Source: Chloroflexota bacterium (GTDB lineage: Bacteria > Chloroflexota > Dehalococcoidia > SHYD01). Taken from it: DNA of 64,000 nt. This document shows, piece by piece, positions 12,796-60,834 of the stretch. Both the position numbers and the translations under genes were made by a program. How positions within the stretch are numbered: position 1 is the stretch's first letter; the number at the start of each line of letters is the position of its first letter. The stretch spans positions 12,060-76,059 of the forward strand of contig JACPQN010000018.1 of NCBI GenBank assembly GCA_016190485.1. Reading direction: 5' to 3'. The notes below the pieces were generated by a model. That model saw nothing but the letters and a program-made list of their open reading frames with translations, did no database searches and was not told the origin of the DNA.

Positions 12796-12811
12796 CGGAA
12801 AGAGAATCTCC

Positions 12812-37815: not shown

Positions 37816-39263
37816 CGACCAAGATCAAGAAGTACCGAGCAGCTACCATAGCCGACGCGTTGCGGCTGGTGAAGGCGGACCTGGGGCCCGACGCCATCAT
37901 CCTGGACTCCCAGCGGGTGCGCCAGCCAGGGATCCAGGGCTGGTTCAAGGCTCCCGTACTGGAAGTCTCGGCCGTGACGGAAGCCGAGGGGCTTCGCCTG
38001 CCCCGAGAGCCCTGGGCGCCCCGTACCCAGCGCCGCGCCCCCGAGCCTGCGGCGGAGGCTCCGACTCCCGCCAGCGGTCTCCAGCTCCCCCGCGAGTCGC
38101 CGCTCTTTCCGCTGGATGCTGCCACCTCCGCCCTGCTCCGAAAGCAATCCCAGCAGAACGCGCTCCCGGCGAGCGCGGGGCCCCTGGCCAGGCCCGCGGC
38201 TGCCACAGCCGAAGTAAGGGGCAGTCCCGATGGCGTCAACGTCGAGATGGAGCGGCTGGCCCAGGCGGTGCAGGAGGTGCAGCGAGAGGTGGCCACCCTC
38301 ATCGGGCTGCACCGCGAGCTCAGCCGGGAGCTGGCGCAGGTGCTCACCCGGTCCGAGCTGTACTCCTCTGTCAGCACAAGGCGGCGCAGCCGCCGCAATC
38401 CGGAGTCTTCACCCGAGAGCACCGTTACGGCCATACCTGGGTCACTGCGCGATCGGGTGCAACGACTGCTCCGGCTGCCCCATGAGGATACCGGGCTGGT
38501 GACGCGCATCCTGCAGGCCGCCGCCCTGCCGCCGGGCGCCGAGGAGCTACCCATGGAAGAAGAGCAGGTGTTGGCGGCCCTGCGAGGAGCCGTCGGCCGG
38601 CTGGCCAAAACGCCGGCGTCCCTCGCGCTTGTTCCAGGGGAGACACGGGTCATCTTTCTGGCAGGTTCCACGGGAGTGGGCAAGACCACGGCAGCCGCCA
38701 AGCTGGCCGCCCACTACGCCCAGCACCACGCCGTGGCCCTCGCCACGGTAGGTCGCTCCGGGTTCATGAGCACCTCGCAGCTCGTGGCTCACTGCGCCCG
38801 CTGGCGGGCCCGCTTCCGGGCCTGCGGTTCCACCGCAGCCCTGGCAGCGTTTCTGGAAGAGGCCAGTGGCCAGGCGGAGGCTATCTTTGTCGACACGCCA
38901 GGCGTGTGCTTCTCCAGCGGCCCGCAAGTCCAGGACCTGCTCCGCCTCACAGGCGCTGCTCAGGACGCCAGGGTCTGGCTGGTGGCCGCGGCTTCCATGC
39001 AGGAGGCGTTGCTCCAGCAGGCCACCCAGGCGCTGGCGGGCCTTCCACTGGACGCCCTGGTGCTCACCAAGCTGGACGAGACCGAGACGCCCGGCGCCCT
39101 GGTGAGCGCGGCCATGGCCGCCGATCTGCCCATAGGATACCTGGCCACGGGCCAGGACCTGCGCTGGGGCTTGGAGGAGGCCTCTGCGGAGAGCATCGCC
39201 CGGCTCCTGGTCAAAGCCGACGCCCCAGCCCCGGAACCGGCGCTGGCCGGGCGCCCGGCGTAG
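37812..39263 (+). CDS. flhF: flagellar biosynthesis SRP-type GTPase FlhF
   Basis: P-loop GSTGVGKTT, DTPG, TKLDE and …IGYLATGQDL. The region that usually reads TTDTYRIxAVEQL reads ATVGRSGFMSTSQL. Confidence 0.85.
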   Translation: MTTKIKKYRAATIADALRLVKADLGPDAIILDSQRVRQPGIQGWFKAPVLEVSAVTEAEGLRLPREPWAPRTQRRAPEPAAEAPTPASGLQLPRESPLFPLDAATSALLRKQSQQNALPASAGPLARPAAATAEVRGSPDGVNVEMERLAQAVQEVQREVATLIGLHRELSRELAQVLTRSELYSSVSTRRRSRRNPESSPESTVTAIPGSLRDRVQRLLRLPHEDTGLVTRILQAAALPPGAEELPMEEEQVLAALRGAVGRLAKTPASLALVPGETRVIFLAGSTGVGKTTAAAKLAAHYAQHHAVALATVGRSGFMSTSQLVAHCARWRARFRACGSTAALAAFLEEASGQAEAIFVDTPGVCFSSGPQVQDLLRLTGAAQDARVWLVAAASMQEALLQQATQALAGLPLDALVLTKLDETETPGALVSAAMAADLPIGYLATGQDLRWGLEEASAESIARLLVKADAPAPEPALAGRPA

Positions 39264-39265
39264 CG

Positions 39266-40000
39266 ATGACCACCGCCAGTGCCAGCCAGCACATCCCGCA
39301 CCTCAAGCTCGCGGTGACGGAGCGGGTGGAGTTGGAGCTGGTCCAGCAGGAGGAGCCGGAGCGCTATCCCACCAGGATCGCTGCGGTACAGGGCCCGCTG
39401 GTCACCGTCGAAGCGCCGCTGCGAAAGCTGGACATGGTGCCCATCCCGGCGGGGAGCCAGGTGCGCCTCTGGGCCTCTCGTCAGTACGCCAGCTTCTCGG
39501 CCCAGGCCACCGTAGAGGCCGCGTTCTGGGCGCCCATTGCCGCCCTGGTCTTGCGCCTTACATCGCCCTGGGCCCGCTTCCAGCACCGCTCCAGCGTGCG
39601 GCTGGAGACCTTGATGCAGCCGGAGCTGGCGGAGCTGGCGCTGCCCGACGGCCGCAGCTTTTCCATCGATCTCTCGGTGCGCAACCTCAGCGTCGGCGGC
39701 GCGCTGCTGGTCACTAAGCGCACACCAAAGAAGCCCCACCCGGATATCGGGCCCCGGCTGGACGCGGGCTTTTTGCGGGAGCACCTATCGGAGCTCCGGA
39801 TCCGACTCCTGTTGCCCTTAAGTGGCAGCAACCAACTGGAGCTGACAGGACGTCTGGTCCGGGTGGAAGAGGTGGAGGAGGAGCTGGAGTATCTCTTGCG
39901 CCTGGCCGTGCAGTTTGTTGATACCCCACTCCGGCACGAGGACATGCTGTTCCGTTTCATCTTTGAGGAGCAGAAGCGCCGCAGGAGGAAAGGCCTGTGA
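39266..40000 (+). CDS. PilZ domain protein (YcgR-like c-di-GMP receptor)
   Basis: N-terminal beta-barrel-like half, then PilZ motifs RSSVR (RxxxR) and NLSVGG (D/NxSxxG). ATG is 3 nt after the flhF stop. The tracked ORF from 38906 is an out-of-frame 5' extension. Confidence 0.85.
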   Translation: MTTASASQHIPHLKLAVTERVELELVQQEEPERYPTRIAAVQGPLVTVEAPLRKLDMVPIPAGSQVRLWASRQYASFSAQATVEAAFWAPIAALVLRLTSPWARFQHRSSVRLETLMQPELAELALPDGRSFSIDLSVRNLSVGGALLVTKRTPKKPHPDIGPRLDAGFLREHLSELRIRLLLPLSGSNQLELTGRLVRVEEVEEELEYLLRLAVQFVDTPLRHEDMLFRFIFEEQKRRRRKGL

Positions 40001-40302
40001 CGGGTAGCCAGGACGTCCACGGGGAGCTTGGCCGCCTCACTCTGGTCCTGGCGGCGGCGGCCGCGCTGGTGGCAGAGGTGGCGGGGCTGCTGGCCGGAGA
40101 TGGCCCGGAGCAGGCCCTGCTGAAGGCCTCGGTGGCCCTGGTGGGCACGGGGCTGATGGGAGGTGTCCTGGAGCTGGTGATGAGCCAGGCGTGGGGCCAG
40201 CCACGGCCGCCCCAGGCGCAAACGGAGGCCATGCAGCCGGAGGTGGAAGGCTCGGCCAGGCAGGGCAAGCCCGCAGATGGGGAGCTAGCAGCCAATGATT
40301 AG
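39997..40302 (+). CDS. hypothetical small membrane protein
   Basis: GTG overlaps the pilZ stop (GTGA) and the 3' end overlaps the fliA start by 8 nt. Two hydrophobic segments and very high third-position GC like neighbouring genes. No family recognised. Confidence 0.45.
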   Translation: MTGSQDVHGELGRLTLVLAAAAALVAEVAGLLAGDGPEQALLKASVALVGTGLMGGVLELVMSQAWGQPRPPQAQTEAMQPEVEGSARQGKPADGELAAND

Positions 40303-41080
40303 CCACGAGGCTCTCTGGACCGAGTTCGTTGCGCAGCGAGACCCGTCCCTCCGGGAACGGCTGATCCTCATGTACGCGCCCCTTGTGAAGTACGTTATCA
40401 ACCGGACGGCGGTCCCCATTTTCCGGCCCATGACCATCGAAGACGTGACGAGCTACGGCATCATCGGCCTCACCCACGCGGTGGACCGTTACGACCCCAC
40501 CAAGGGCGTCACCTTCGAGACCTACGCCATCCCCCGGGTGCGGGGCGCCATCATGGACGGCATGCGAGAGTCTGGCCTCTTCAGCCGGACGGATATGGCT
40601 AAAGTGCGGGAGCTGGAGCGCACCGTCGACGCCCTGCTGCACGAGCTGCAACGGTTTCCCACCACGGCGGAGCTGGCCGAGCGGACGAACATGCCCCCCA
40701 GAGAGGTAGAGCGCCTCATGCTGGTGAGCCGCACCACCTTCGTCTCCCTGGATGCTCCCGTGGAATCGGAGGACGGAGAGGACCGGGGTATGCTGCGGGA
40801 CCTCCTGGCCGACGACAAGAGTCCTAACCCCGTGGAGATTATGGAAGAGAAGGAGGTGCGGGCCGCCCTAATCCAGAGCATCCAAGCGCTGCCAGAGCGC
40901 AGCCGGCTGGTGATCTCCCTCTACTACGTGGACGAGCTCTCGCCCCTGGAGATCGCCGAGGTGCTGGGCGTCTCCCGCTCCCGGGTCTATCAGATCCATG
41001 CCCATGCCATCATGGAGCTGCGTGCCCTCATGCGATCCAAGCTGGGGCACCACGAGCTGCTGGCGGGCGTGCGGTCCTAG
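40295..41080 (+). CDS. fliA: flagellar sigma factor sigma-28 (FliA/SigD)
   Basis: Region 2 …GIIGLTHAVDRYDPTKGVTFETYAIPRVRGAIMDGMRE…, region 4 …LSPLEIAEVLGVSRSRVYQIHAHAI…. Confidence 0.92.
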   Translation: MISHEALWTEFVAQRDPSLRERLILMYAPLVKYVINRTAVPIFRPMTIEDVTSYGIIGLTHAVDRYDPTKGVTFETYAIPRVRGAIMDGMRESGLFSRTDMAKVRELERTVDALLHELQRFPTTAELAERTNMPPREVERLMLVSRTTFVSLDAPVESEDGEDRGMLRDLLADDKSPNPVEIMEEKEVRAALIQSIQALPERSRLVISLYYVDELSPLEIAEVLGVSRSRVYQIHAHAIMELRALMRSKLGHHELLAGVRS

Positions 41081-41086
41081 GAGGAA

Positions 41087-41743
41087 GTGACCGTGGGCAT
41101 CCAGATGTGGCGCATGCTGGCCAGCGTGACCCTGTTGATCATCCTGGGGCAGGCGGCCCTGCAACCGGAGGTGGTCCAGGGCAATGGCACCTCCATCAAG
41201 GTGGTGCTGAGCTACCTGAGCGGCGTCTCCAACTTCGGCTCCCAGAGCGCCGCGGGGGTGGCGGAGATCGTCATGAAAGAAGGGGAGATCAAGATCACCG
41301 CGCTGGGGATGCAGCCGCTCACCTCCCAGACCTACCAGGTCTGGCTGGCCAACACCCGCTCCGGTGAGGTGTGGAACGGCGGCAGGGTCAGCCCCGACCC
41401 ACGCGGCAACGTCTCCGCCACTAATATCCTGGCCGGAGAGATCCCGGACAAAGGCTATAATCTGGTCTTCCTGTCGGTGGAAGAACCGGACGTGGCGCCG
41501 CGGACGCCCAGCCAGCAGCGGTCCATCGCCGGCCATTTCCCCACCAGCCCCGCCCCCGGCCAGCAACCGGAGCAGTTGCCCAACACCGGAGATGCGCTAT
41601 CCGTGGATAACATCCGATTTGTGCCGGCCGCGCCGCCGGCCGCTCGGCCAGAGGGGGAGCCCTGGCGGCCCTGGGTCATGACGGCCCTGCTGCCGCTGGC
41701 GGCTGCCCTGGGCTTCTGGATCGGCCGGCGCTGCGGGGCCTGA
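41087..41743 (+). CDS. exported protein with RskA-C-terminal-like domain and LPNTG + C-terminal TM/basic tail
   Basis: N-terminal hydrophobic signal; …TSQTYQVWLANTRSGEVWNGGRV…LVFLSVEEP…; LPNTG at aa 164-168 (nt 41576-41590); helix WVMTALLPLAAALGFWI followed by GRRCGA. GTG at 41093 has better spacing from the AGGAGG SD. Confidence 0.7.
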   Translation: MTVGIQMWRMLASVTLLIILGQAALQPEVVQGNGTSIKVVLSYLSGVSNFGSQSAAGVAEIVMKEGEIKITALGMQPLTSQTYQVWLANTRSGEVWNGGRVSPDPRGNVSATNILAGEIPDKGYNLVFLSVEEPDVAPRTPSQQRSIAGHFPTSPAPGQQPEQLPNTGDALSVDNIRFVPAAPPAARPEGEPWRPWVMTALLPLAAALGFWIGRRCGA

Positions 41744-41755
41744 GAGGAGCGTAGC

Positions 41756-42499
41756 ATGATTCGAGGCGTCTATGTCGCAGCGGCGGGCATGGTGGCGTCC
41801 ATGACCCGGCTGAACCGGCTGGCCAACAACATCGCCAACGTGGCCACGCCGGGCTACAAGCAGGACGTGGCCAGCCCGGAGGTGTTTGAAGGGATGATGC
41901 TGGCGCGCGTTGGGCAGGCAGGTGGGCCCCAGCAGATCGGCCCCCTCACCACCGTGGTCGTGGCCGAACGGCCCCGGGTCGACCTGACCCAGGGCGCGCT
42001 CCAGGCTACGGGCGGAGAGCTGGACTTCTCGCTCTCGGGGCCGGGCTTCTTTGCGGTGGAAAAGGAGGGCGCCCGCTACTTCACCCGCAACGGCGCCTGG
42101 ATGCTAGACCCCAACCGCGCCCTGCGCACGCTGGACGGAGGCCTGGTGCTGGGCGCGGGCGGCCCCATTACCATCCCACCCGGCACCCTCACGGTCGAAA
42201 CCAACGGCCAACTGGCGGTGGACGGCCGCGTGGTAGACACCCTTTCCGTCGTCGATTTCCCGGAAGGCACGGCCTTCCAGAAGATCGGCCACAGCTACCT
42301 CCAGGCCGTGGGCGCAGAGGCTGTGCCGGCCCGAGCGTTCGAGGTGCACCAGGGCTTCCTGGAGGCCTCCAACGTGAATGCCATGGACTCCATGGTGGAG
42401 TTGCTCACCAGCCACAAGAACTACGGAGCAAGCCAGCGCTTCTTGCAGCTTGCCGATCAGGCCCTGGCCAAAGCCGTAAACGAGCTGGGCCGGGTCTAG
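41756..42499 (+). CDS. flgF: flagellar basal-body rod protein (FlgF/FlgG family)
   Basis: N-terminal …RLNRLANNIANVATPGYK…, C-terminal …GFLEASNVNAMDSMVELLTSHKNYGASQRFLQ…. Confidence 0.85.
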   Translation: MIRGVYVAAAGMVASMTRLNRLANNIANVATPGYKQDVASPEVFEGMMLARVGQAGGPQQIGPLTTVVVAERPRVDLTQGALQATGGELDFSLSGPGFFAVEKEGARYFTRNGAWMLDPNRALRTLDGGLVLGAGGPITIPPGTLTVETNGQLAVDGRVVDTLSVVDFPEGTAFQKIGHSYLQAVGAEAVPARAFEVHQGFLEASNVNAMDSMVELLTSHKNYGASQRFLQLADQALAKAVNELGRV

Positions 42500-42513
42500 A
42501 AAAGGAGCACCAG

Positions 42514-43302
42514 ATGTCCAGCGCCATACGAGTGGCCGCCAGCGGCGCCCGGGCCCACCAGATCCGCCTGGACGTAGTGGGCCACAATCTGTCCAACGTG
42601 AATACCCCCGGCTTCAAGGCTACCCGCACCGATTTCCAGGACGACCGCTACATCGAGTTGCGGGCCGCTCGCCCAGGGCGAGAGGCCGGAGCCGGCGACC
42701 GGGCAGGGAGCTGGCTGGGCACCGGCGTCATCGTGGCCACCCGCCCCATCTTCGCCCAGGGGCCTATTGAGATCACCGACCAGTCCCTGGACCTGGCCAT
42801 CGTGGGGAACGGCTTCTTTCAGGTGCGTCATCCCGACGGCTCCCTCGCCTACACCCGGTCTGGGGCCTTCCGGGTGGACCCCCAGGGGCGGATGGTGACC
42901 GCGCATGGGTACCTGCTGGAGCCTCCCATCCAGGCGCCTGCAGGAGTCGCGGAGCTTAAGGTGGACCCTGAAGGGATCGTCAGCGCCCGAGTGGGACGAG
43001 AGGGAGCGCCGGTGCGATTGGGCACTCTGGCTCTGAGCACCTTTCCCAACCCAGAGGGCCTCGAGTCTCGGGGCTTCGGCATCTACGTGGCCTCGGAGAA
43101 GTCCGGCCAGCCCACTACAGTGCCCGCCGGGCAGGGAGGTAACGGCAGCATCGTTGCCGGCGCGCTGGAACGGTCCAACGTCGACCTAGAGGGCCAGATG
43201 GTGGCCCTGGTGGAAGCCCAGCGGGCCTACCAGCTCTCCCTCAAGGCGGTGCAGGCGCTCATCGAGATGACCCAGGAGGCCGTGGACCTACAGCGGCTCT
43301 AG
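42514..43302 (+). CDS. flgG: flagellar distal rod protein FlgG
   Basis: …RLDVVGHNLSNVNTPGFK…GNGFFQV…YTRSGAFRVD…GALERSNVDLEGQMVALVEAQRAYQ…. Confidence 0.9.
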   Translation: MSSAIRVAASGARAHQIRLDVVGHNLSNVNTPGFKATRTDFQDDRYIELRAARPGREAGAGDRAGSWLGTGVIVATRPIFAQGPIEITDQSLDLAIVGNGFFQVRHPDGSLAYTRSGAFRVDPQGRMVTAHGYLLEPPIQAPAGVAELKVDPEGIVSARVGREGAPVRLGTLALSTFPNPEGLESRGFGIYVASEKSGQPTTVPAGQGGNGSIVAGALERSNVDLEGQMVALVEAQRAYQLSLKAVQALIEMTQEAVDLQRL

Positions 43303-43431: not shown

Positions 43432-43725
43432 ATGGAGATTGACAAAGTCGGGTCCAACCTTGCGCACCAGTACGTCTCCCAGACCCAGGCCGCACAGCAG
43501 ATAGCCGCGGTCAAGGGCGAGGCGGCCCGGAAAAGCTCGGGCCAGGACCGGGTAGACCTCTCGCCCGAGGCCCTGTTGCTGCAGCACGCCCAGCAGGCGG
43601 CGCTGGATGCCCCCGACCTGCGGGCGGACCTGGTGGACCAGGTGCGGCAGCGTATCGCCACGGGGAGCTACCAGATCGACGCCGCCCGGATTGCGGACAG
43701 GCTGCTGGGCGGCGATCTGGCCTAG
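43432..43725 (+). CDS. flgM: anti-sigma-28 factor FlgM
   Basis: 97 aa, …DRVDLSPEA…VDQVRQRIATGSYQIDAARIADRLL… is a typical FlgM C-terminus. Confidence 0.85.
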   Translation: MEIDKVGSNLAHQYVSQTQAAQQIAAVKGEAARKSSGQDRVDLSPEALLLQHAQQAALDAPDLRADLVDQVRQRIATGSYQIDAARIADRLLGGDLA

Positions 43726-47297: not shown

Positions 47298-47537
47298 ATG
47301 CTGGTGTTGACCCGCAAGTCCGGCCAGAAACTGCTCCTGGGGCCAGACATCACCCTGGTAGTGCTGGAGGTGAACGGTGACCGGGTGAAGGTGGGCGTGG
47401 AGGCTCCCAGGAGCATCAAGGTAATGCGCCCCGAGGTGCTCCAGGAGCTGGCCGAAGAGAACCGGCTGGCGGCCCAGGCCCCGCCCGAGCTGCGGCTGCT
47501 CCTGGGCGGGCTGGAGGAGCCGCCCGTCATCGCCTGA
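47298..47537 (+). CDS. csrA: carbon storage regulator CsrA (flagellar type)
   Basis: MLVLTRKSGQKLLLGPDITLVVLEVNGDRVKVGVEAPRSIKVMRPEV…. Confidence 0.92.
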   Translation: MLVLTRKSGQKLLLGPDITLVVLEVNGDRVKVGVEAPRSIKVMRPEVLQELAEENRLAAQAPPELRLLLGGLEEPPVIA

Positions 47538-47606
47538 CCCCCTACCCCGAATAGCCCCCGCTCACCGCTGGCACGGCAGCAGTCCCTGCCAATCCACCCC
47601 CTGTGT

Positions 47607-47631
47607 GGGGCGGGGCCTTGTGGCCCGCCAG
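47607..47631. repeat. GGCGGGGCC-ttgt-GGCCCGCC hairpin repeat, copy 1
   Basis: Same element as 47757-47783, and as 20736-20763 in inverted orientation. Outer CCACCC/GGGTGG arms extend the stem. Confidence 0.6.
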
Positions 47632-47684
47632 AGGGTGGGAGACAGCCCCCCCTTACAGGATTCCAGCCCCCATCTCGAGAGTCC

Positions 47685-47711
47685 CGACGCGGCCGGTGGA
47701 CGGCCGCGTCG
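47685..47711. other. perfect 11-bp stem-loop CGACGCGGCCG-gtgga-CGGCCGCGTCG
   Basis: Perfect inverted repeat 150 nt downstream of csrA. No T-tract, so it is not scored as a canonical terminator. Confidence 0.5.
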
Positions 47712-47756
47712 GCGCATGCCAGCCCGCACTACCTCCAGCGATGCGCCACCCTGCAT

Positions 47757-47783
47757 AGGGCGGGCCCTTGTGGCCCGCCAGGG
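47757..47783. repeat. GGCGGGCC-cttgt-GGCCCGCC hairpin repeat, copy 2
   Basis: Perfect 8-bp stem; shares a ~20-nt core with copy 1. Confidence 0.6.
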
Positions 47784-47832
47784 CTTCCCTTCCGCCTGAG
47801 GGTTGTGAAGGGCTGTAACTCCTCACATCCTG

Positions 47833-47841
47833 GCCGATAGT
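47833..47841 (+). promoter_or_regulatory. sigma-28-type -10 box GCCGATAGT upstream of fliC
   Basis: 165 nt upstream of the fliC ATG; TAAC lies 13 nt upstream. Confidence 0.5.
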
Positions 47842-47956
47842 GGCTTAGTGAAGTACTTCATCGCCTGGCGCCACAGGCAGACCCGGCGGGGCAGACCGGG
47901 GGCGCGGTTCCTGCTCACAACTGAATAGCGCCGGGGTGCTCACTCCGGCAAGAGGG

Positions 47957-47975
47957 CTGCGCAAGGAGTGCGCGG
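47957..47975 (+). promoter_or_regulatory. candidate CsrA binding site 1: AGGA in a hairpin loop (fliC leader)
   Basis: Stem CTGCGC / GCGCGG with loop AAGGAGT. The only other GGA in the leader is in the SD GGGAGG (47991-47996), 9 nt before the ATG. Confidence 0.45.
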
Positions 47976-48005
47976 CCGTACCTACAGCATGGGAGGCGAC
48001 GAGCA

Positions 48006-49211
48006 ATGAGCTCCACGGTCATCAACACCAACGTCAGCGCCCTGATCGCCCAGCGCAACCTGGCGGCCAGCGGCGTAATGCTGTCCAAGTCGACAGAGCG
48101 ACTCTCCAGCGGCCTGCGCATCAACCGGGCCGGAGATGACGCCGCAGGCCTGGCCATTAGCGAGAAGTTGGAGGCCCAGATCCGGGGCACCCGCCAGGCT
48201 TCTCGCAATGGCCAGGACGGCATCTCCATGATCCAGACGGCTGAAGGCGCCCTCATTGAGGTGCACAGCATGCTCCAGCGGATGCGGGAGCTGTCGGTCC
48301 AGGCCTCCAACGGCACCCTGAGCGCCACCGACCGCTCCTCCATCAACACCGAGGTGCAGGCCCTCAAGACGGAGATCGACGCCATCTCCACCCGCACCAA
48401 GTTCAACGGACAGAACCTCCTCACCGGCGCCCTGGCCACCAGTGTGGACGCCACGTCGGAGCTGAAGGACAACACCGCCCTGGCGGTGGTGCTTGCTGAC
48501 CTGTTCACCGTCAGCACCGTGGAGGTCACCGCTGCCGCGGCGGGCACCACCTACACGCTGTCTGCCGGCACCGGCGCCAACCAGTTGACCATGACGGCCA
48601 CGGTGGGTGGCAGCGTCGTCGCCCAGACCCTGACCCTGGCCGACATGACCGGGGCCAACGCGAGCCAGCTCCTCAATTGGGACAAGCTGGGCGTCAAGGT
48701 CACGGTGGTCACCGGCGCGGCCAACGCCAACAACACCGCGGTGAACCTGCGGAGCTCCTTCGTGGCCGCGGCCAACGACACGGTGATCACGGCCGCGGGC
48801 AGCTCCTCCGCCACCTACCAGATCGGCGCGGACAACGGCCAGACTATGACGGTGGCCTTCGCCCAGGTGGACACCACCGCCATGAGCTTGACAACGTCGT
48901 TGACCAACTTCAACGCGTCCCAGAGCGTGGCCAACGCCCAGGCCCTCATCAGCGCCGTGGACACGGCCATCGACTACGTGAACAGCAAGCGCGGCTCCCT
49001 GGGTGCTTCCCAGAACCGGCTGGAGCACACCATCGCCAACCTGGCTGTCACCGCCGACAACCTGGCCGCTTCCCAGTCCCTAATCCGGGATGTGGACATG
49101 GCCGCGGAGATGGTGCAGTACACCAAGACGCAGATCCTGCAGCAGGCGGGCATGGCCATCCTGTCGCAGGCCAACTCTGCGCCCCAGTCAGTCCTGTCCC
49201 TGCTCCGGTAG
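48006..49211 (+). CDS. fliC: flagellin
   Basis: …INTNVSALIAQRNLAASGVMLSKSTERLSSGLRINRAGDDAAGLAISEKL…, C-terminal …RDVDMAAEMVQYTKTQILQQAGMAILSQANSAPQSVLSLLR. Confidence 0.93.
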   Translation: MSSTVINTNVSALIAQRNLAASGVMLSKSTERLSSGLRINRAGDDAAGLAISEKLEAQIRGTRQASRNGQDGISMIQTAEGALIEVHSMLQRMRELSVQASNGTLSATDRSSINTEVQALKTEIDAISTRTKFNGQNLLTGALATSVDATSELKDNTALAVVLADLFTVSTVEVTAAAAGTTYTLSAGTGANQLTMTATVGGSVVAQTLTLADMTGANASQLLNWDKLGVKVTVVTGAANANNTAVNLRSSFVAAANDTVITAAGSSSATYQIGADNGQTMTVAFAQVDTTAMSLTTSLTNFNASQSVANAQALISAVDTAIDYVNSKRGSLGASQNRLEHTIANLAVTADNLAASQSLIRDVDMAAEMVQYTKTQILQQAGMAILSQANSAPQSVLSLLR

Positions 49212-49232
49212 TCCTCAGCCCGTCCTGAGGGA

Positions 49233-49269
49233 GCAAGAGACCCTTCCGGAGAAGGGTCTCTTGCTTTCT
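49233..49269 (+). terminator. intrinsic terminator of fliC
   Basis: Perfect 13-bp stem GCAAGAGACCCTT / AAGGGTCTCTTGC, 6-nt loop, followed by TTTCT. Confidence 0.75.
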
Positions 49270-49287
49270 CCGATGTTGCCGACTCTG

Positions 49288-49296
49288 GCCGATAGT
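49288..49296 (+). promoter_or_regulatory. sigma-28-type -10 box GCCGATAGT upstream of the fliD unit
   Basis: Immediately after the fliC terminator and 61 nt upstream of the ORF at 49357. Confidence 0.45.
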
Positions 49297-49356
49297 CCCT
49301 TATAGGAGGCGGGTTCTTCCTAGGGTGGCTAGCGGCCGCGCCGGCAGGGGGAAGCC

Positions 49357-49695
49357 ATGAATCTACAGCCATTGAGTCCCACGGACAGTTTAACCCCCAT
49401 TACAGACAGCCGAATGCGACGTGAGCGGGGCAAGGCGCCCTTCTCGCGGCAGGGGCATCCGGATGCTCGCCAGACCCGGCCCGGCGCCAGCGCTGAGGTG
49501 GCCGCGGAGGCGACGGCGTCTTCCCCACCTCCGCGGCCCGCCTCCACGGCGCGGACAGCCCCCGCTGCCCCACTCGAACGCCGCCAGCCGGCGACCGAGG
49601 CGCCCGCTGTGGAGACCCGACAGCAACGGCTCCGCTCGGCGCTCCAGATGTACCGCCAGATAGATGCGGCAACTTCCCATCAGGAAGAAGGATAG
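49357..49695 (+). CDS. hypothetical Pro/Ala/Arg-rich protein in the flaG position
   Basis: GGGGGAAG SD plus ATG. The sequence looks disordered, with a short helical C-terminus (QQRLRSALQMYRQIDA), and does not resemble FlaG. All frames are open here, so coding status is uncertain. Confidence 0.35.
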   Translation: MNLQPLSPTDSLTPITDSRMRRERGKAPFSRQGHPDARQTRPGASAEVAAEATASSPPPRPASTARTAPAAPLERRQPATEAPAVETRQQRLRSALQMYRQIDAATSHQEEG

Positions 49696-49701
49696 CCCCT
49701 C

Positions 49702-52050
49702 ATGTCCGGACTCCAAATCGACGGCCTCGCCTCCGGGCTGCAGACGGGAGCCATCATTGACCGGCTCATCGAGCTAGAGCGGCAGCCCGTGGTCCGCCTC
49801 AACGTCAAGGCCACGGTGCTGGACCAGAAAAAGAAGGCCTACCTTGAGGTGCAGGGTAAGTTCAACATCCTCCAGGCCCGGGTCAGCGATCTGCTGAAGG
49901 CCACGACCCTGAATAAGAAATCCGCGCTGGTCACCAAGGCCGATGGCACTGCCAGCAGCGCCGTCACCGTGCAGGCCGGCGCCGAGTCCGCCAACGGGAG
50001 CTTCAGCGTCACCGTGAGCCAGTTGGCCACGGCCACCCGGGTCACCAGCGCCAGCACCATAGGCCAGGGGATCAGCGCCGCCACGGTGCTCCAGAACGCC
50101 GGCCTCATCGTGCCCTTGTCGGTCAAGAACTCCACGGCCACCAGCGGCACCTTCACCATCAACGGGACGTCCCTCACGGTGGACTCCGCTACCGAGTCGC
50201 TCAACGACATCGTGGCCAAGATCAACGCCCAGGTGGCCGGCGTCACGGCCACCATCACCAACGCCGACGGCACGGCCAACCCCGCAGGCAACTACCTCAA
50301 GCTCAGCTCGGCCTCCTCCATGTCCGTGGGATCAGGCGCAGATACCAGCAACGTTCTGGGCGCCGTGAACCTGCTGGCAGCGCAGCCCAAGGGGGCCACC
50401 GTCACCGGTGGCCTCGTGAGCACCGGCGCGCTGGCGGCCTCGGAGATCCACCTGGATGGCGTCATCATCGCCACCCGGGCCACGGCCGCGAGCAACACCG
50501 CCGCGCAGAACGCCGCTTCTCTGGCGGCGGATATCAATGGCTCCGCCAGCGCCACCGTCGTTGCCACGGCCAACGCCAACGGCACCCTGACGCTGGTGTC
50601 CAAGACCAGGGGCGCCGGCAGCTCCATCAACATCACCCAGGCTGCTGCAGCCACGGGGCTCAGCGTGGGCGCCACCACCCAGGCCACCGACGAGCGCATC
50701 AGCTCGGCAGGCATCGGCGGCGCCCAGGTGAGCGCGGTGCTCTCCGGCGCACGCCTGGCCACGGCCATCTCCGGGTTGGACGTCAACGGCAACGGCGAGT
50801 TCAAGCTCAACGGTGTCTCCATCACCTTCAACCAGAACGAGTCCATCAACGCCATCATCACCCGCATCAACGCTTCCGGCGCCGGCGTGCTGGCGGTGTA
50901 CGACGCCACCCAGGATAAGCTGCTCCTGACCTCCAAGAGCACCGGCTCCACCACCATCCAGCAGCAGGACGTAACAGGCAACTTCCTGGCGGCCATGGGC
51001 GTCCTCTCGGCTTCCCAGAGCCTGGGACAGAACGCGGTGTTCAGCGTGAGCACGGTAAACGGCGGCGCATCCCAGTCCAGCTCCGGCAACGTGGTACGGG
51101 GCTTCATCCCGGGCGTGGAGCTGACGCTGAACCAGGTCAGCTCGGCGCCGGTCACGGTCTCCATCGCCCAGGACACCGCGGGCACGGCCCAGGCCGTCAA
51201 GGACTTCGTTGACGTGTACAACGCCACCATGGCGTTCCTCCGGCAGAAGGTCAAGGTGGACGCCACCGGAAAGGACCCGGGCGTCCTGAGCGCGGACAGC
51301 TCGCTGCGGACCCTGGAGGCGAGCATCCGGCGTTACCTGGTGACGCCGGCGACAGGCTTGTCGGGCAAGTACCTGAGCCTGAGCGACGTGGGGCTAACCT
51401 TCGGGGCGGTGGGCACCGCCGTAGGCGCCGCCAAAGACCTGGTGCTGGACTCCAGCAAACTCACCACGGCCCTGAACGAGAGCCCCCAGGAGGTCCAGGC
51501 GCTCCTGGCGGGCTTCCAGAGCACGGCAACGCTCCAGGGCGGCGGCACCGGCAGCGTGGCCAGCGTCACCGGCGCCCCCTCCACCCACCACCAGCCGGGA
51601 AGCTACCTGGTGACCACTACGACCAGCGGCAGCATCTCCGCCATCTTCACCCCCACGGGAGGCGTGGCGGGCCCGGAGAAGTTCGGAGGCACCCTGGTGG
51701 CTGGCGGCACCGACAGCGCCGTGATCCCCGGTATGGTCGCCACGGCCACCAACCCCCTGACCAACGGCACCAACACCATCACCGTGGCCGTGCAGCAGAA
51801 GGGGGTCCTGGTGGACCTGGGTGATTTCCTGAAGACCACGGTGGCGACCGACGGGCTGCTGAGCAGCCGCCAGGACGCCGCTACCAAAGAGATCCTCGGC
51901 ATCAACGAGAGCATCCGGCGCGCGGAGAGCCGCCTGGACCAGCGGCGGCTGCGGCTGGAGGCGCAGTACGCGCAGTTGGAGAGCCTGATCTCTCAGATGA
52001 ACACGCAGCAGCAGTCTCTTCAGAGCCTGCTAGCGCAGATGGCGCGCTAA
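49702..52050 (+). CDS. fliD: flagellar filament cap protein FliD (long, 782 aa)
   Basis: N-terminal …GLQIDGLASGLQTGAIIDRLIELERQP…, C-terminal …RLEAQYAQLESLISQMNTQQQSLQSLL…. Confidence 0.88.
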   Translation: MSGLQIDGLASGLQTGAIIDRLIELERQPVVRLNVKATVLDQKKKAYLEVQGKFNILQARVSDLLKATTLNKKSALVTKADGTASSAVTVQAGAESANGSFSVTVSQLATATRVTSASTIGQGISAATVLQNAGLIVPLSVKNSTATSGTFTINGTSLTVDSATESLNDIVAKINAQVAGVTATITNADGTANPAGNYLKLSSASSMSVGSGADTSNVLGAVNLLAAQPKGATVTGGLVSTGALAASEIHLDGVIIATRATAASNTAAQNAASLAADINGSASATVVATANANGTLTLVSKTRGAGSSINITQAAAATGLSVGATTQATDERISSAGIGGAQVSAVLSGARLATAISGLDVNGNGEFKLNGVSITFNQNESINAIITRINASGAGVLAVYDATQDKLLLTSKSTGSTTIQQQDVTGNFLAAMGVLSASQSLGQNAVFSVSTVNGGASQSSSGNVVRGFIPGVELTLNQVSSAPVTVSIAQDTAGTAQAVKDFVDVYNATMAFLRQKVKVDATGKDPGVLSADSSLRTLEASIRRYLVTPATGLSGKYLSLSDVGLTFGAVGTAVGAAKDLVLDSSKLTTALNESPQEVQALLAGFQSTATLQGGGTGSVASVTGAPSTHHQPGSYLVTTTTSGSISAIFTPTGGVAGPEKFGGTLVAGGTDSAVIPGMVATATNPLTNGTNTITVAVQQKGVLVDLGDFLKTTVATDGLLSSRQDAATKEILGINESIRRAESRLDQRRLRLEAQYAQLESLISQMNTQQQSLQSLLAQMAR

Positions 52051-52083
52051 GTCTTATCCAAAGGGAGCAGAGACAGAGCAACG

Positions 52084-52488
52084 ATGAAGCAAGCCTTAGG
52101 CCTCTACCAAGAGGTGCACACACGGACAGCCAATCCGGCAGAACTGGTGGTCATGCTGTACGAGGGGGCCGTCCGCTTTCTACGGCAGGCCCTCATTGGC
52201 ATGGAAGACGGAGACATCGAGAAAGTCCACAACAGCCTGGTGCGCGCTCAGCGGATCATTGAGGAGTTGGAGATGGCGGTAGACCCGCGCCACGGCCCCA
52301 TTGGCGACTCCCTCACTGCGCTCTATCGCTTCATGCTCTCGGAGCTGGAGCTGGCCAACGTACGGAAGGAACGGGCGCGGGTGCAGCCGGTGGTGGAGCT
52401 CCTGGAGGAGTTGCTGGGCGCCTGGCGCGAAGCCGGACGCCACGCGCCGGTGGCTACCGCCGCGGCGTCGCCGGCGCCGCGGGGATGA
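52084..52488 (+). CDS. fliS: flagellin chaperone FliS
   Basis: …YQEVHTRTANPAELVVMLYEGAVRFLRQA…LVRAQRIIEEL…. Confidence 0.9.
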   Translation: MKQALGLYQEVHTRTANPAELVVMLYEGAVRFLRQALIGMEDGDIEKVHNSLVRAQRIIEELEMAVDPRHGPIGDSLTALYRFMLSELELANVRKERARVQPVVELLEELLGAWREAGRHAPVATAAASPAPRG

Positions 52489-52838
52489 TGTGTGAGAGAG
52501 GAGTCGGTGGGATGCCGAACCTTGAGCGACTATACGGCATTGTGCAGGCCCAGAGGGCGGCCCTTCAGGGAAGGGACTTCCGGCGCTTCCAGGAGCTGCT
52601 CTGGGATCGGATCCAGGCCCAGGCCCACTTGGTAAGCGATCCGCCTGAGCAGACTCCGGCAGCGCGGGACTTGATCGAGGATATCCTGCTCATGGATCGC
52701 GCCATGGAGCTGCAGCTCCAGGACCTGCTCCAGGAGGCTGCCCAGGAGCTGAGCAGTCTGACCCGTCAGGAAGGCGCCCTGCGCGCGTACCTGCCAGCCG
52801 CGAGCACCGGTTCCTGCCTGATTGATCGCGCCTCCTAG
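52485..52838 (+). CDS. hypothetical helical protein (FliT/FlgN-like by position)
   Basis: ATGA overlap with the fliS stop. Helical …LYGIVQAQRAALQGRDFRRFQELLWDRIQ…; assignment is by position only. Confidence 0.5.
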   Translation: MMCERGVGGMPNLERLYGIVQAQRAALQGRDFRRFQELLWDRIQAQAHLVSDPPEQTPAARDLIEDILLMDRAMELQLQDLLQEAAQELSSLTRQEGALRAYLPAASTGSCLIDRAS

Positions 52839-52847
52839 CCGTTCGCC

Positions 52848-53594
52848 ATGGTCCAGGAGCCACGCAGTCTCCGCCAGGGGCAGTTGGCGGCCCAGCGGAC
52901 GCCGCCCTTCGACAAGCTCAGGACGCCGCCAGGCGAACAGAGCAGCCAAGACCGACGCCTGGGCCGGCGGCGGTTTCTCGTGACCCTGGCCGCCCTGGCG
53001 GGCATGGCTCTCCCTCTACTGGCCAAGACACGGGCAGAGGGGGGCTGGGACGTCGTCGCAGCGGAGCGGAGCGACGGGCAGGGCATGGAAACGCCTCAAA
53101 CGGACATCTCTAGCTCTCTTGCCCCCGCCCAGGCCACCATCCCTGTTCCCGCGGCAGCGGAGCGCGCTCCCAAGCTGCTGCCGCCGGTGCGCCTGGCCAT
53201 CCCCGCCATCCAGCTCGAGTCTCCTGTAGTGCCCCTGGGGGTTCGGTTCGACTATCGCGGCCAGCTGGAGTGGGAAACGGCTCCCTTCGTGGTAGGACAC
53301 TATGTGAACACGGCCAACCCCGGCGGGAGTGGCAACTGCGTCCTCAGCGGCCATATCAGCAGCCGCAGCGCGGGAGCGGTGTTCAAGCGTCTGCCGGAGG
53401 TGCAGCCGGGCGACGGCGTAGCGGTAGCTACCGTGGAGTCCCTGTTCCTCTACCAGGTCGTGAGTACGCAGGTGGTAGACCCCCGGGCCACCGAGGTCAT
53501 GGGGCCTGTGCGGGACGCGCAGCTAACCCTGCTGACCTGTGTGCCCGATGGGGTCTACAGCCACCGCCTGGTGGTCAGCGCCATCCTCCTCTAG
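52848..53594 (+). CDS. sortase family transpeptidase
   Basis: …NCVLSGHISS… (His), …QLTLLTCVP… (TLxTC Cys), …YSHRLVVSA (Arg). N-terminal RRLGRRRFLVTLAALAGMALPLLA anchor. Codons ~19-27 are a dispersed-repeat copy (PPFDKLRTP). Confidence 0.85.
   Translation: MVQEPRSLRQGQLAAQRTPPFDKLRTPPGEQSSQDRRLGRRRFLVTLAALAGMALPLLAKTRAEGGWDVVAAERSDGQGMETPQTDISSSLAPAQATIPVPAAAERAPKLLPPVRLAIPAIQLESPVVPLGVRFDYRGQLEWETAPFVVGHYVNTANPGGSGNCVLSGHISSRSAGAVFKRLPEVQPGDGVAVATVESLFLYQVVSTQVVDPRATEVMGPVRDAQLTLLTCVPDGVYSHRLVVSAILL
52902..52930. repeat. dispersed hairpin-repeat copy inside the sortase 5' region
   Basis: CCGCCCTTCGACAAGCTCAGGACGCCGCC. Confidence 0.6.
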
Positions 53595-53764
53595 GGGCTT
53601 CCTCCCCTTTCAGGCAGTGCCGATCGGCCCGTACCAGCGGTACTTTTTCCCCCTCTGGCCGCCCTTCCCCAGCCCTCCGTCTCTGGCCGTATTGCCCTGT
53701 AACGTGCCCCATCCTACGCCTACGATGGAGCTACCACTTCTCTCAGAGGCAAGGAGGGGAAGCC

Positions 53765-54202
53765 ATGAGCGTCTTCAACACCTTTTCCATCTGCGGCTCG
53801 GCGCTAACCGCGCAGCGGCTGCGCATGGACGTCATCTCCAGCAACATCGCCAATGCCGAGACCACCCACACGCCCGAGGGCGGTCCCTACCGGCGGCGAC
53901 AGGTGCACTTCGCTCCAGTGCCGTCCCAGGAGCTGGGCGCTCCACGCGTCCGGGAGCGCGCGGCCACCGCCGGCGTAGCCGTGGAACGCATCGTCACCGA
54001 CGAGCGCCCGCCCCGCCTGGTGCTGGATCCGGAGCACCCCGACGCCGACACCAACGGCTACGTGGCCTACCCCAACGTCGACATCGTCACGGAGATGGTG
54101 GACCTCCTCTCCGCCACCCGGGCCTACGAGGCCAACATCACCGTGGTCAACACCGCCAAGACCATGGCGCAGCGGGCCATGGAGATCGGCGGTCGCGGCT
54201 AG
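53765..54202 (+). CDS. flgC: flagellar proximal rod protein FlgC
   Basis: …GSALTAQRLRMDVISSNIANAETT…GGPYRRRQVHF…DPEHPDADTNGYVAYPNVDIVTEMVDLLSATRAYEANI… AAGGAGG SD. The tracked ORF from 53270 is a spurious extension. Confidence 0.92.
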   Translation: MSVFNTFSICGSALTAQRLRMDVISSNIANAETTHTPEGGPYRRRQVHFAPVPSQELGAPRVRERAATAGVAVERIVTDERPPRLVLDPEHPDADTNGYVAYPNVDIVTEMVDLLSATRAYEANITVVNTAKTMAQRAMEIGGRG

Positions 54203-59224: not shown

Positions 59225-59654
59225 AGCGCTGCTCCGGTACCGCCGCTGGCTGGTGGAGGTGCTCCAGTTGGAGGTCTCTGTGCTGCGCCTCTCCCTGGAT
59301 GCCGCGACCCGGCGCCTACAAGCGTTGCACGGCCGGCGGAGCGCGGCGCTGCTGGCGCTCCGCCGGCGCCAGGAGGAAGCGCCCCTGGACCCCCACGCCA
59401 CGCAGCGGCGCCTGCGCGAGCTGGAGCGCATCGGGCGCGCAATCCAGGAGCAGGAGGAAGCGATGGTGGCGCTGCACGGGCGACTGGAGCAGAAGCAGCA
59501 GGCCCTACTGGAGCGTAGCCAGTCCAAGTGGCTGCTGGAGCGGCTAGAACAGCAGGACCGGACGCGGCTGCGGCAGCGCCTGCGCCAGATCGAAACCAAA
59601 GCAATGGATGAGTCCGCCCAGGCAGGTTACCTGCGGCAGGAAGAAGGCGGGTGA
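59208..59654 (+). CDS. fliJ: flagellar export protein FliJ
   Basis: 148-aa coiled coil …[11 protein letters not shown]…[11 protein letters not shown]…[10 protein letters not shown]. Overlaps fliI by 17 nt. Confidence 0.75.
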
Positions 59655-60418
59655 TGGAGCTCGAGGGTATGCAATGGCGGGATCTCACCCTGTTGGCTGC
59701 GGCCAGGGCCGGCCCGGCTTCCACGCGCCCCGGCGCGGCCCCGGACGCCCCGGCCTTTGCCCGGGTGCTGCAGCGGCGCCTGCTCATGCGGGCGCTGGGC
59801 GACGGCCCCCGGTCCGGGGGCACGGGGTTCGGGGCCGGCGGCGACCTGGGGCTGGTCTTCGCGTTGCTGCTGGCCCGCGGGTTCCGCGGAGGCTATGCCC
59901 AGAGCCCTGCCCAGGCCGGGGCGCCCGCGAGCACATCGCAGAGCCGCGCTCGCCAGGATCGCCCCCCCTCAGGGGCGGGAGCGACACCGCTGCCTGCGGC
60001 CGCAGAGGCCTATCGCGGGCTCATCGAAGAGGCAGCCCGCCGCTACGACGTGCCGGCCGCCCTCATCGCCGCCGTGGCGCATGCCGAGTCCGGCTTCAAC
60101 CCCAACGCGCTTTCTCCCGCCGGCGCCATGGGCCTGATGCAGCTCATGCCCGGCACCGCCGCCGGCCTGGATGTCCAGAACCCTTGGAGCCCCGCCGAGA
60201 ACATCGACGGGGGCGCCCGCTACCTACGCCGGGCGCTGGACCGCTACAACGGCGACCTCCGGCTGGTGCTCCAGGCCTACAACGCGGGCGCCGGAGCGGT
60301 CGAACGGTACCAGGGCGACGTGCCCTACGAGGAGACCCGCCGCTACCTCGCACGCACCCTGGCCCTGCTGCAGCGCTATCAGGCTATCCCACCCAGTCTC
60401 ACGGAGGTGCAGGCATGA
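59651..60418 (+). CDS. lytic transglycosylase (SLT domain), flagellar-cluster associated
   Basis: …[30 protein letters not shown]…[11 protein letters not shown]…[11 protein letters not shown]… 4-nt overlaps with both fliJ and flgB. Confidence 0.88.
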
Positions 60419-60834
60419 GCAGGCCCCTTTCAGCCGACCAGGCGCTGCAGAGCGCGCTGAACGCCCTGGCGCTGCGGCAGCGGATCATCTCCAACAACGT
60501 GGCCAACGTGGATACGCCGTCCTTCAAGAAGTCGGATGTGCGCTTTGAGGAGTTCCTCAACGCGGAGCTGCGCCAGGACCAGAGCGGGCTACTCCTGGCC
60601 CTGGCCCGCTCTAACGCCCGTCACCTGGATCCCTTTTTCAGCTCGGGTGGCGCGCTGCGCAGTGAGGTGGTGACTGTGCCGGACGCCAAGCTCCGGTCTG
60701 ACGGTAACAGCGTGGACATCGATCTGGAGATGCTCCACCTGGCCGAGACGGCCACCACCTACAGCGCCCTCTCCCGCCTGGCGGGGATGCGCCTAGCCCT
60801 CCTGAAGAGCGCTGTGACCGAAGGACGTCGCTAG
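60415..60834 (+). CDS. flgB: flagellar proximal rod protein FlgB
   Basis: …[30 protein letters not shown]…[27 protein letters not shown]… The tracked ORF from 59608 is an out-of-frame extension. Confidence 0.9.

Follow-up and report, generated by a model that had tools for sequence, protein, structure and literature searches.

Dedicated pairs of a sortase and its substrate are known within regulons: the class B enzyme SrtB with IsdC in the iron-regulated isd locus, and class D sortases with sporulation-phase substrates in Bacillus. The housekeeping sortases of monoderm bacteria, class A SrtA in Firmicutes, class E in Actinobacteria and class F, act on proteins that carry LPXTG or LAXTG. The flagella of diderm bacteria have a P-ring and an L-ring (FlgI and FlgH) and accessory discs or collars such as FlgP and FlgT. 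To our knowledge, neither a sortase nor an LPXTG protein has been reported as part of a flagellar gene set. Here we analyse a stretch of 64,000 nucleotides, hereafter the window, from a Chloroflexota bacterium (GTDB lineage Bacteria; Chloroflexota; Dehalococcoidia; SHYD01; contig JACPQN010000018.1, positions 12,060 to 76,059 of the forward strand), in which a sortase gene, srt, lies inside a supercluster of flagellar genes that also encodes an LPXTG protein, which we call X. We favor a model in which srt and X form a flagellum-dedicated sortase/substrate pair, and put its probability at roughly 60%.

This proposed pair resembles those of the SrtB/IsdC type in that a specialised paralogue would be encoded with a physiological gene set and serve few dedicated substrates, with other sortases left for general anchoring. 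It differs from the SrtB and class D pairs in that the regulon is flagellar, the enzyme scores below the class B and D cut-offs, the sorting motif is simply LPXTG and not NPQTN or LPNTA, and enzyme and substrate are encoded in separate operons. With the housekeeping sortases, srt shares the fold, the His-Cys-Arg triad, N-terminal anchoring and a candidate substrate with LPXTG, helix and basic tail; it is set apart from them by scores far below the cut-offs of the class hidden Markov models (HMMs), by a TC[VI]PDG signature, by the many flagellar-linked members of its family that look like lipoproteins of the twin-arginine translocation (Tat) type, and by its flagellar synteny. X can be likened to the P- and L-rings, FlgP and FlgT by proposed function only, as a Sec-exported, non-rotating protein around the rod that is encoded beside flgF and flgG. 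No sequence or structural similarity was detected between X and these rings, discs and collars, and attachment of X would be covalent through the sortase rather than by lipidation or self-assembly.

The sortase and its linkage to fliT

The features of the sortase gene are as follows; A2 denotes an 18-sequence alignment of srt homologues, and 4d70, 8t28 and 2xwg are solved sortase structures to which the product was aligned with phmmer.

52848-53594, + strand: sortase gene srt, 248 aa, ATG start (Pfam, generic sortase HMM, AlphaFold2 model with Foldseek)
52965-53024, + strand: Tat-like RRRFLV (aa 40-45) and hydrophobic anchor or signal segment (aa 40-59), read from the sequence
53352-53354, + strand: codon of His169 (SGH), in register with the GH motif of 4d70, 8t28 and 2xwg; invariant in A2
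53538-53540, + strand: codon of Cys231 (TLLTCVPDG), in register with the TC motif of the solved sortases; invariant in A2
53565-53567, + strand: codon of Arg240 (HRLVV), in register with the HR motif of 8t28 and 2xwg; invariant in A2

The open reading frame (ORF) has a third-position GC content of 0.82, typical of true genes in this 67% GC window, and an exact copy of its product is present in NCBI under the annotation 'MAG: sortase [Chloroflexi bacterium]', where MAG stands for metagenome-assembled genome. Residues 116-245 match the Pfam family Sortase (PF04203, MEROPS C60) at E 2.1e-26, with 92.5 bits where 26.6 is the cut-off, and the product passes the generic NCBIfam sortase model TIGR01076 (58.5 against 39.35). 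The catalytic domain spans residues ~113-248 and holds the motifs NCVLSGHISS, QLTLLTCVP and YSHRLVVSA, which contribute His169, Cys231 and Arg240, respectively. The His, Cys and Arg at these motifs are the catalytic residues of the sortase family. The original prediction had recognised this triad in the 248-aa ORF, and the reading is borne out: in both the HMM and the PDB alignments the Cys and His fall on their conserved counterparts. The AlphaFold2 model, built from A2, shows the closed beta-barrel typical of sortases and has a catalytic domain with a predicted local distance difference test score (pLDDT) above 90; Foldseek matched it to sortase structures at E ~1e-11 and returned 125 PDB matches at E <= 1e-3, and every one of the best 50 of these 125 is a sortase. 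On this combined evidence from sequence and modelled fold, the predicted product is an active-type sortase, that is, a Cys transpeptidase.

Assignment to one of the classes A to F by HMM, proposed at the outset, did not succeed, as the product scores below every class cut-off (score/cut-off: class F 65.7/166, class E 62.8/160, class C 57.6/160, class D 53.8/165, SrtD 55.5/140, GN 43.7/158) and no class A or class B model in NCBIfam matched it at E <= 1. Structure was no more discriminating. The top Foldseek matches are the pilus-assembly sortases SrtA of C. diphtheriae and SrtC-1 and SrtC2 of A. oris (E ~1e-11); class E, D and A structures trail class C by no more than a factor of ten, and these scores are too close to tell class C, E, D or A apart. 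No DP[WFY] lid motif was seen when the sequence was read, and with only 8 residues past Arg240 the protein has no C-terminal membrane helix. The signature TC[VI]PDG is common to the srt relatives, all of which were found in MAGs of Chloroflexota, Dehalococcoidia or Anaerolineae. We therefore treat srt, as judged from these sequences, as a member of an unclassified and apparently Chloroflexota-specific sortase subfamily marked by TC[VI]PDG.

The N-terminus was originally described as a twin-arginine-like anchor. The sequence does have RRRFLV followed by a hydrophobic stretch. The Tat-signal HMM TIGR01409 stays below its cut-off (11.4 bits against 16.7), but many homologues of srt likewise have a motif of the RRxF[LV] type. 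In addition, a lipobox-like Cys follows the signal-like N-terminus in 17 of the 27 flagellar-linked sortases described below as compared with 1 of 18 others, and many of the lipobox-bearing members also have the RRxF[LV]-type motif (for example MKRRRFMLLSGLALLGTAC); most of the 18 non-flagellar paralogues have a plain signal-anchor helix instead. The sortase in the window keeps RRRFLV and lacks the lipobox Cys. These sequence features suggest that the flagellar-linked sortases with both RRxF[LV] and a lipobox Cys may be Tat-exported lipoproteins.

The genes on either side of srt are these:

49702-52050, + strand: fliD (filament cap protein of 782 aa), opening the unit that srt closes; homologues with FliD_N/FliD_C, 37% identity to fliD of Thermomicrobium roseum
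52084-52488, + strand: fliS (flagellin chaperone), Pfam FliS E 1e-32
52485-52838, + strand: fliT-like chaperone gene; Pfam FliT 25 bits, under the cut-off of 29.5; orthologues annotated FliT
53631-53653, + strand: terminator-like hairpin GTACCAGCGGTAC and T-run, from a consensus scan, 37 nt past the srt stop
53765-54202, + strand: flgC, first gene of the next unit (flgC-fliE-fliF-...-flgE); Pfam and ORF inspection

The fliT-like ORF overlaps the fliS stop by 4 nt. The spacing given in the original prediction is exact, with 9 nt between the fliT-like stop (52838) and srt and 170 nt between the srt stop (53594) and the flgC start (53765). A terminator-like hairpin lies 37 nt downstream and is partly conserved in two metagenome loci (L001 and L005); on this weak evidence, srt appears to close the fliD-fliS-fliT unit. 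FliD itself has a long central region rich in Ala, Thr, Gly and Ser, and its relatives range from 686 to 787 aa.

To ask whether this arrangement recurs, as originally suggested, we assembled 45 sortase loci, namely the window, three metagenome loci (L001, L005 and L006) and 41 loci found by searching a single genome of each GTDB species with the sortase alignment, and assessed their gene context by tblastn with the flagellar proteins of the window. The sortase lies directly after fliS(-fliT) in 27 of the 45 loci (23 of the 41 from GTDB species), at 40-62% identity, and T. roseum provides a 28th such locus, bringing the set to 46. All three homologues at 56-59% identity (P0002, P0007 and P0008) directly follow fliD-fliS-fliT, and in one of them a response regulator and an inverted flgE operon stand downstream in place of flgC. 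Elsewhere the downstream neighbours are flgC-fliE-fliF, an inverted flbD-motA-motB-fliL-fliM (L030), genes for an extracytoplasmic function (ECF) sigma factor and a GNAT protein (L018), or PdxA and ABC transporter genes (L014). This variability indicates that srt travels with fliD-fliS-fliT and not with flgC; membership of srt in the flgC operon was rejected, since the fliS-fliT linkage holds where flgC is absent. The linkage to flagellar genes is thus conserved in relatives, despite divergence and rearranged downstream genes.

The remaining 18 loci have no flagellar neighbours and fall mostly on two separate branches of a neighbour-joining tree, which was made without bootstrap and is indicative only. 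A single MAG, JACQUE01, encodes one flagellar sortase (L022) and two non-flagellar ones (L039 and L048), and the presence of both kinds argues that the fliT-linked one is a specialised paralogue. Two observations concern individual loci. One contig labelled 'Proteobacteria bacterium' (L038, JAJPGT010000063.1) has the Chloroflexota-type order flgK-flgL-fliW-fliC-fliD-fliS-sortase and is probably mis-binned or mislabelled. At L034 (9506-10456), a sortase of the flagellar clade with a Tat-like/lipobox N-terminus lies among non-flagellar genes, with an FdhE-like ORF upstream; it may be a relocated copy, or the lineage may have lost its flagellar genes.

The candidate substrate and its slot beside the rod genes

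The features of X and its flanking genes are listed here; A1 is an alignment of 8 X homologues that reaches down to 38% identity.

41087-41743, + strand: X, candidate substrate, 218 aa from GTG 41087; start agrees with the NCBI model and with homologues
41576-41590, + strand: LPNTG sorting motif of X; L, P, T and G invariant in alignments of 8 and of 36 sequences
41591-41674, + strand: Pro/Ala-rich spacer of X, 28 residues, between LPNTG and the membrane helix
41675-41740, + strand: C-terminal membrane helix VMTALLPLAAALGFWIG and basic tail RRCGA; read from the sequence, helix predicted by AlphaFold2, G-R conserved in A1
40295-41080, + strand: fliA (sigma-28 type factor), immediately 5' of X; Pfam Sigma70 r2/r3/r4
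41756-43302, + strand: flgF and flgG (rod genes), immediately 3' of X; Pfam Flg_bb_rod, LlgE_F_G_D1, Flg_bbr_C

X, of which an exact copy in NCBI is a hypothetical protein, consists of a Sec-type signal peptide (MWRMLASVTLLIILGQAALQ...), a domain of ~120 aa, LPNTG, the Pro/Ala spacer, the membrane helix and the RRCGA tail. When every ORF of the window was screened for a sorting motif with a hydrophobic stretch and a basic tail behind it, X came out as the one credible protein, in agreement with the original prediction that it is the only LPXTG-type candidate here, and no other sorting-signal protein was found in any flagellar locus that was fetched. The axial proteins exported by the flagellar type III secretion system (T3SS) were considered as substrates and rejected: FliC, FliD, FlgK, FlgL, FlgF, FlgG and FliK have no LPXTG apart from non-terminal, non-canonical matches.

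The sorting signal of X is conserved well beyond its closest relatives. L-P-x-T-G, the helix and the G-R tail are kept throughout A1. An exhaustive HMM search (E <= 1e-3) delimits a family of 238 clusters at the 50% identity level; among the 156 members examined, 129 have LPxTG and 116 have LPxTG together with a C-terminal hydrophobic helix, and the remainder are mostly fragments. The alignment of 36 sequences, at 25-52% identity, has no invariant columns other than a single Ala, a single Trp and the L, P, T and G of the motif. With invariance almost confined to the motif, the sorting signal is the most constrained part of X. The spacer is kept at ~25-35 aa in the lineages closest to the window and measures ~3-11 aa in distant family members. 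From this pattern of sequence conservation, X is predicted to be a genuine cell-wall sorting-signal protein.

The ~120-aa domain is predicted by AlphaFold2 to be a beta sandwich of eight strands, and a profile search with X against PDB sequences gave zero matches. Similarity to anti-sigma factors was seen at a low level: X scores 21.9 bits against the NCBIfam model NF052375 'anti-sigma factor' (cut-off 100), Pfam matches RskA_C (PF10099) in one of the eight A1 members (P0126, 2.4e-7), and the precomputed annotation of six homologues (P0181, P0258, P0280, P0281, P0290 and P0291) also contains RskA_C. An RskA-type anti-sigma factor was considered for X and rejected, given the signal peptide at its N-terminus, the absence of a cytoplasmic domain and a weak similarity that is limited to the extracytoplasmic part. 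The resemblance to RskA-type proteins lies in the beta-sandwich domain; X differs from them in having a signal peptide in place of the internal helix and a sorting signal at its end.

Every locus recovered with X, from ~10 lineages (L009-L013 and L055-L060; 32-58% identity), has the order fliA-X-flgF-flgG, often with overlapping stop and start codons and even where unrelated genes follow the unit; a metagenome scan for X returned 3 loci. An extra small ORF stands between fliA and X in L011/L012 and in T. roseum. In L011 (4020-4610) it encodes 196 aa with no Pfam match, and in T. roseum (L061 19460-19843) it encodes 127 aa with an N-terminal hydrophobic segment and has an odd annotation, sensory histidine kinase. 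Wherever a locus is long enough to span the two slots (the window, L024, L026 and L030), it has X as well as the sortase, and a sortase locus (L007) and an X locus (L010) come from one metagenome assembly. The survey of related flagellar clusters thus finds that srt and X both recur, each in a conserved slot.

Thermomicrobium roseum and the wider supercluster

A tblastn search against plasmid records found both genes in Thermomicrobium roseum DSM 5159, on the megaplasmid NC_011961.1. The same two genes occupy the same slots as in the window. In flaG-fliD-fliS-fliT-sortase, the last gene (TRD_RS13845, 222 aa, TLLTCIPDG) has 41% identity to the srt product over the catalytic domain, passes the generic sortase model and no class model, and is already annotated 'sortase' in RefSeq. 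In fliA-small ORF-TRD_RS09470-flgF-flgG, the hypothetical protein TRD_RS09470 has 26% identity to X (E 2e-14) and ends in LPQTG, a spacer of 11 aa, a membrane helix and RRAR. T. roseum differs from the window in this short spacer, in the small ORF between fliA and X, and in a second sortase/substrate pair at the end of its flgC...flgD-flgE operon (L062 5073-8438, equivalent to NC_011961.1 630857-634222). The substrate of this second pair is a right-handed beta-helix protein of 899 aa with a choice-of-anchor Q domain and a C-terminus of LPATG, membrane helix and RGRR, and a class F-like sortase gene directly follows it.

The genome paper on T. roseum reported the absence of flgH, flgI and flgA, called the attachment of the flagellum 'ambiguous' and described a protein-dominated wall whose proteins are thought to be cross-linked to peptidoglycan (Wu et al. 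2009, PMC2615216). LPXTG has 0 mentions in that paper, and a literature search found no paper that names T. roseum together with a sortase. Published RNA-seq data bear on X under an older locus tag, trd_A0043, which we take to be T. roseum X by counting between the published tags of fliA (A0041) and the rod genes (A0044-5). This gene has ~2100-2280 normalised counts, and its neighbours have ~1800 (A0042), 1550 falling to 1160 (flgF), 1930-2015 (flgG) and 4300 falling to 3660 (fliA) (PMC6776052, Table S1). These data show that X is transcribed in T. roseum at the level of its neighbours.

In the window, the flagellar supercluster runs over ~35 kb, from ~28.5 kb to the end, and the first 28 kb hold metabolic and housekeeping genes. 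Its order is as follows, with the one further gene referred to below.

Part 1: cheY-like, flbD, motA, motB, fliN/Y, fliP, fliQ, fliR, flhB, flhA, flhF, PilZ/YcgR, fliA
Part 2: X, flgF, flgG, flgM, flgN, flgK, flgL, fliW, csrA, flagellin, flaG-like ORF
Part 3: fliD, fliS, fliT-like, sortase
Part 4: flgC, fliE, fliF, fliG, fliH, fliI, fliJ, lytic transglycosylase (SLT), flgB, fliK, flgD, flgE
43432-43725: flgM, normal, within part 2

The P- and L-ring genes flgH, flgI and flgA were not found in the ~35-kb supercluster, and its MotB has an OmpA-type peptidoglycan-binding domain. No site in the window matches the canonical sigma-28 promoter (TAAA-N14-16-GCCGATAA) in 10 or more of its 12 positions with the CGAT core intact, and a sigma-70 promoter scan of 47300-54000 likewise gave zero matches.

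Three further observations concern the gene content of the window. The protein of PilZ/YcgR type (PilZNR and PilZ domains, 38906-40000) directly follows flhF near fliA, as it does in L009, L058 and L060. flgB (region 59651-60834) lies apart from flgC in the order fliJ-SLT-flgB-fliK, as in L001, L005 and T. roseum, and the hydrolase there is an M23 peptidase or an SLT/M23 fusion. Among the metabolic genes, 12725-15637 encodes a UPF0182 membrane protein of 970 aa (Pfam E 1e-286) that has no relation to the sortase.

A proposed dedicated pair and its alternatives

The original prediction proposed a dedicated sortase/substrate pair tied to flagella, and the survey supports it to the extent that both genes are conserved members of flagellar clusters; from their co-occurrence and synteny we infer that the sortase processes X and that X becomes linked to the wall. 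We envision a scenario in which X would be exported via Sec, and its C-terminal helix would keep it in the membrane. The sortase, facing outward on its N-terminal anchor (a lipid anchor in many relatives), would cut X between Thr and Gly and transfer it to a peptidoglycan precursor, so that X would be covalently fixed in the wall. There it could serve the basal body as an accessory that is fixed to the wall and does not rotate, such as a bushing or collar encircling the distal rod. We propose a non-rotating accessory because both genes lie in flagellar operons of clusters that have no P- or L-ring genes, and a structural role because X is encoded next to the distal rod genes, there are no P/L rings and a wall-bound protein must be non-rotating. 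A role in anchoring the stator seems less needed, since MotB already binds peptidoglycan through a domain of its own. That X is a bushing or collar around the rod is a tentative suggestion, held with much less confidence than the pairing itself.

Several points weigh against the pairing or the proposed role. Because the loci were recovered by way of the sortase or of X, the counts give the probability of a flagellar context given the gene, not the share of flagellated Chloroflexota that carry these genes. Two sortases of the flagellar clade, L034 and L054 (the latter on a short contig), lie outside a flagellar context. The sortase and X are encoded in different operons ~11 kb apart. In the window X, the helix is not close to the motif, with 28 residues between LPNTG and helix; classical sorting signals have a shorter gap between the motif and the hydrophobic segment. 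No LPXTG-anchor HMM matched X, and its sole NCBIfam listing at E <= 0.01 is the weak anti-sigma match. The structural model of X is of moderate confidence (pLDDT 61) and has no significant structural neighbour, the best Foldseek match being a Cu,Zn superoxide dismutase-like sandwich at E 0.03, and so does not speak for a ring or bushing. Lastly, in the T. roseum RNA-seq data the fold change of X is 1.08, as compared with 0.74-0.75 for flgF and flgE, and there is no joint down-regulation (PMC6776052).

Two alternatives survive best, and we consider both of them unlikely. According to the first, srt is a general-purpose housekeeping sortase that came to lie behind fliT through an ancestral insertion and has been kept there by synteny inertia, with many substrates elsewhere and no flagellar role. 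No class-specific feature ties srt to a special function, and L034 is a member of the same clade outside a flagellar context. However, adjacency to fliT has outlived 40-60% sequence divergence and repeated downstream rearrangement, a fliT-linked sortase is found in Thermomicrobia and Dehalococcoidia-type MAGs alike, the extra non-flagellar paralogues could do the housekeeping job, and the one conserved LPXTG protein in the vicinity is encoded by the flagellar cluster itself.

The second alternative, which we judge equally improbable, is that srt is co-regulated with the late flagellar genes and remodels the surface in step with motility by anchoring adhesins or S-layer/beta-helix proteins, with X processed elsewhere or serving an unrelated role in the envelope. 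The class F-like sortase of T. roseum and its LPATG beta-helix neighbour after flgE fit this idea and imply that sortase substrates in flagellar clusters need not be parts of the basal body; the protein-dominated, cross-linked wall of that organism (PMC2615216) is also in keeping with it. Against this stand the absence of a beta-helix or other LPXTG protein beside the fliT-linked sortase in all 27 loci and the position of X, which is locked between fliA and the rod genes across ~10 lineages.

Two further explanations we regard as very improbable. A polymerising sortase of the pilin type (class C-like) that joins X subunits into a fibre or ring would agree with the pilus-assembly enzymes at the top of the Foldseek matches, but structures of classes E, D and A score nearly as well, the class C HMM is far from its cut-off, neither the lid motif nor a C-terminal membrane helix is seen, and X has no invariant Lys for a pilin nucleophile. 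A regulatory module, in which X would be an anti-sigma-like envelope sensor whose cleavage by the sortase modulates FliA-dependent expression, would draw on the weak NF052375 match, the RskA_C annotations and the adjacency of X to fliA, and it is hard to reconcile with a cytoplasmic part that is only a tail of ~5-10 residues, the absence of an anti-sigma (zf-HC2) domain and the presence of a normal flgM.

The enzyme and the sorting signal described here are of known kinds; their conserved integration in flagellar operons is apparently new, as far as our literature searches show. Full-text searches found nothing on sortases or LPXTG proteins as members of flagellar gene sets, and two papers on Actinoplanes sortases do no more than cite a flagellar paper. 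It is conceivable, if doubtful at present, that X is the first known flagellar part to be joined covalently to peptidoglycan, installed by a sortase whose gene lies with those of the filament-cap chaperones. It would then form a ring, bushing or collar that is fixed to the wall, surrounds the distal rod and takes the place of the P- and L-rings in monoderm Chloroflexota.

A conserved sortase/substrate pair of this kind would add to the flagellar machinery of envelopes that have no P- and L-rings a new kind of part, one that is fixed covalently to the wall, and would define a new, functionally specialised sortase clade. The two genes also lend further genomic support to a monoderm-type envelope in these Chloroflexota. 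If true, it would answer the question raised in 2009 of how the flagellum is held in the atypical, protein-rich wall of T. roseum (PMC2615216), and since both genes are present in this cultured and fully sequenced organism, the question of attachment is directly testable there.

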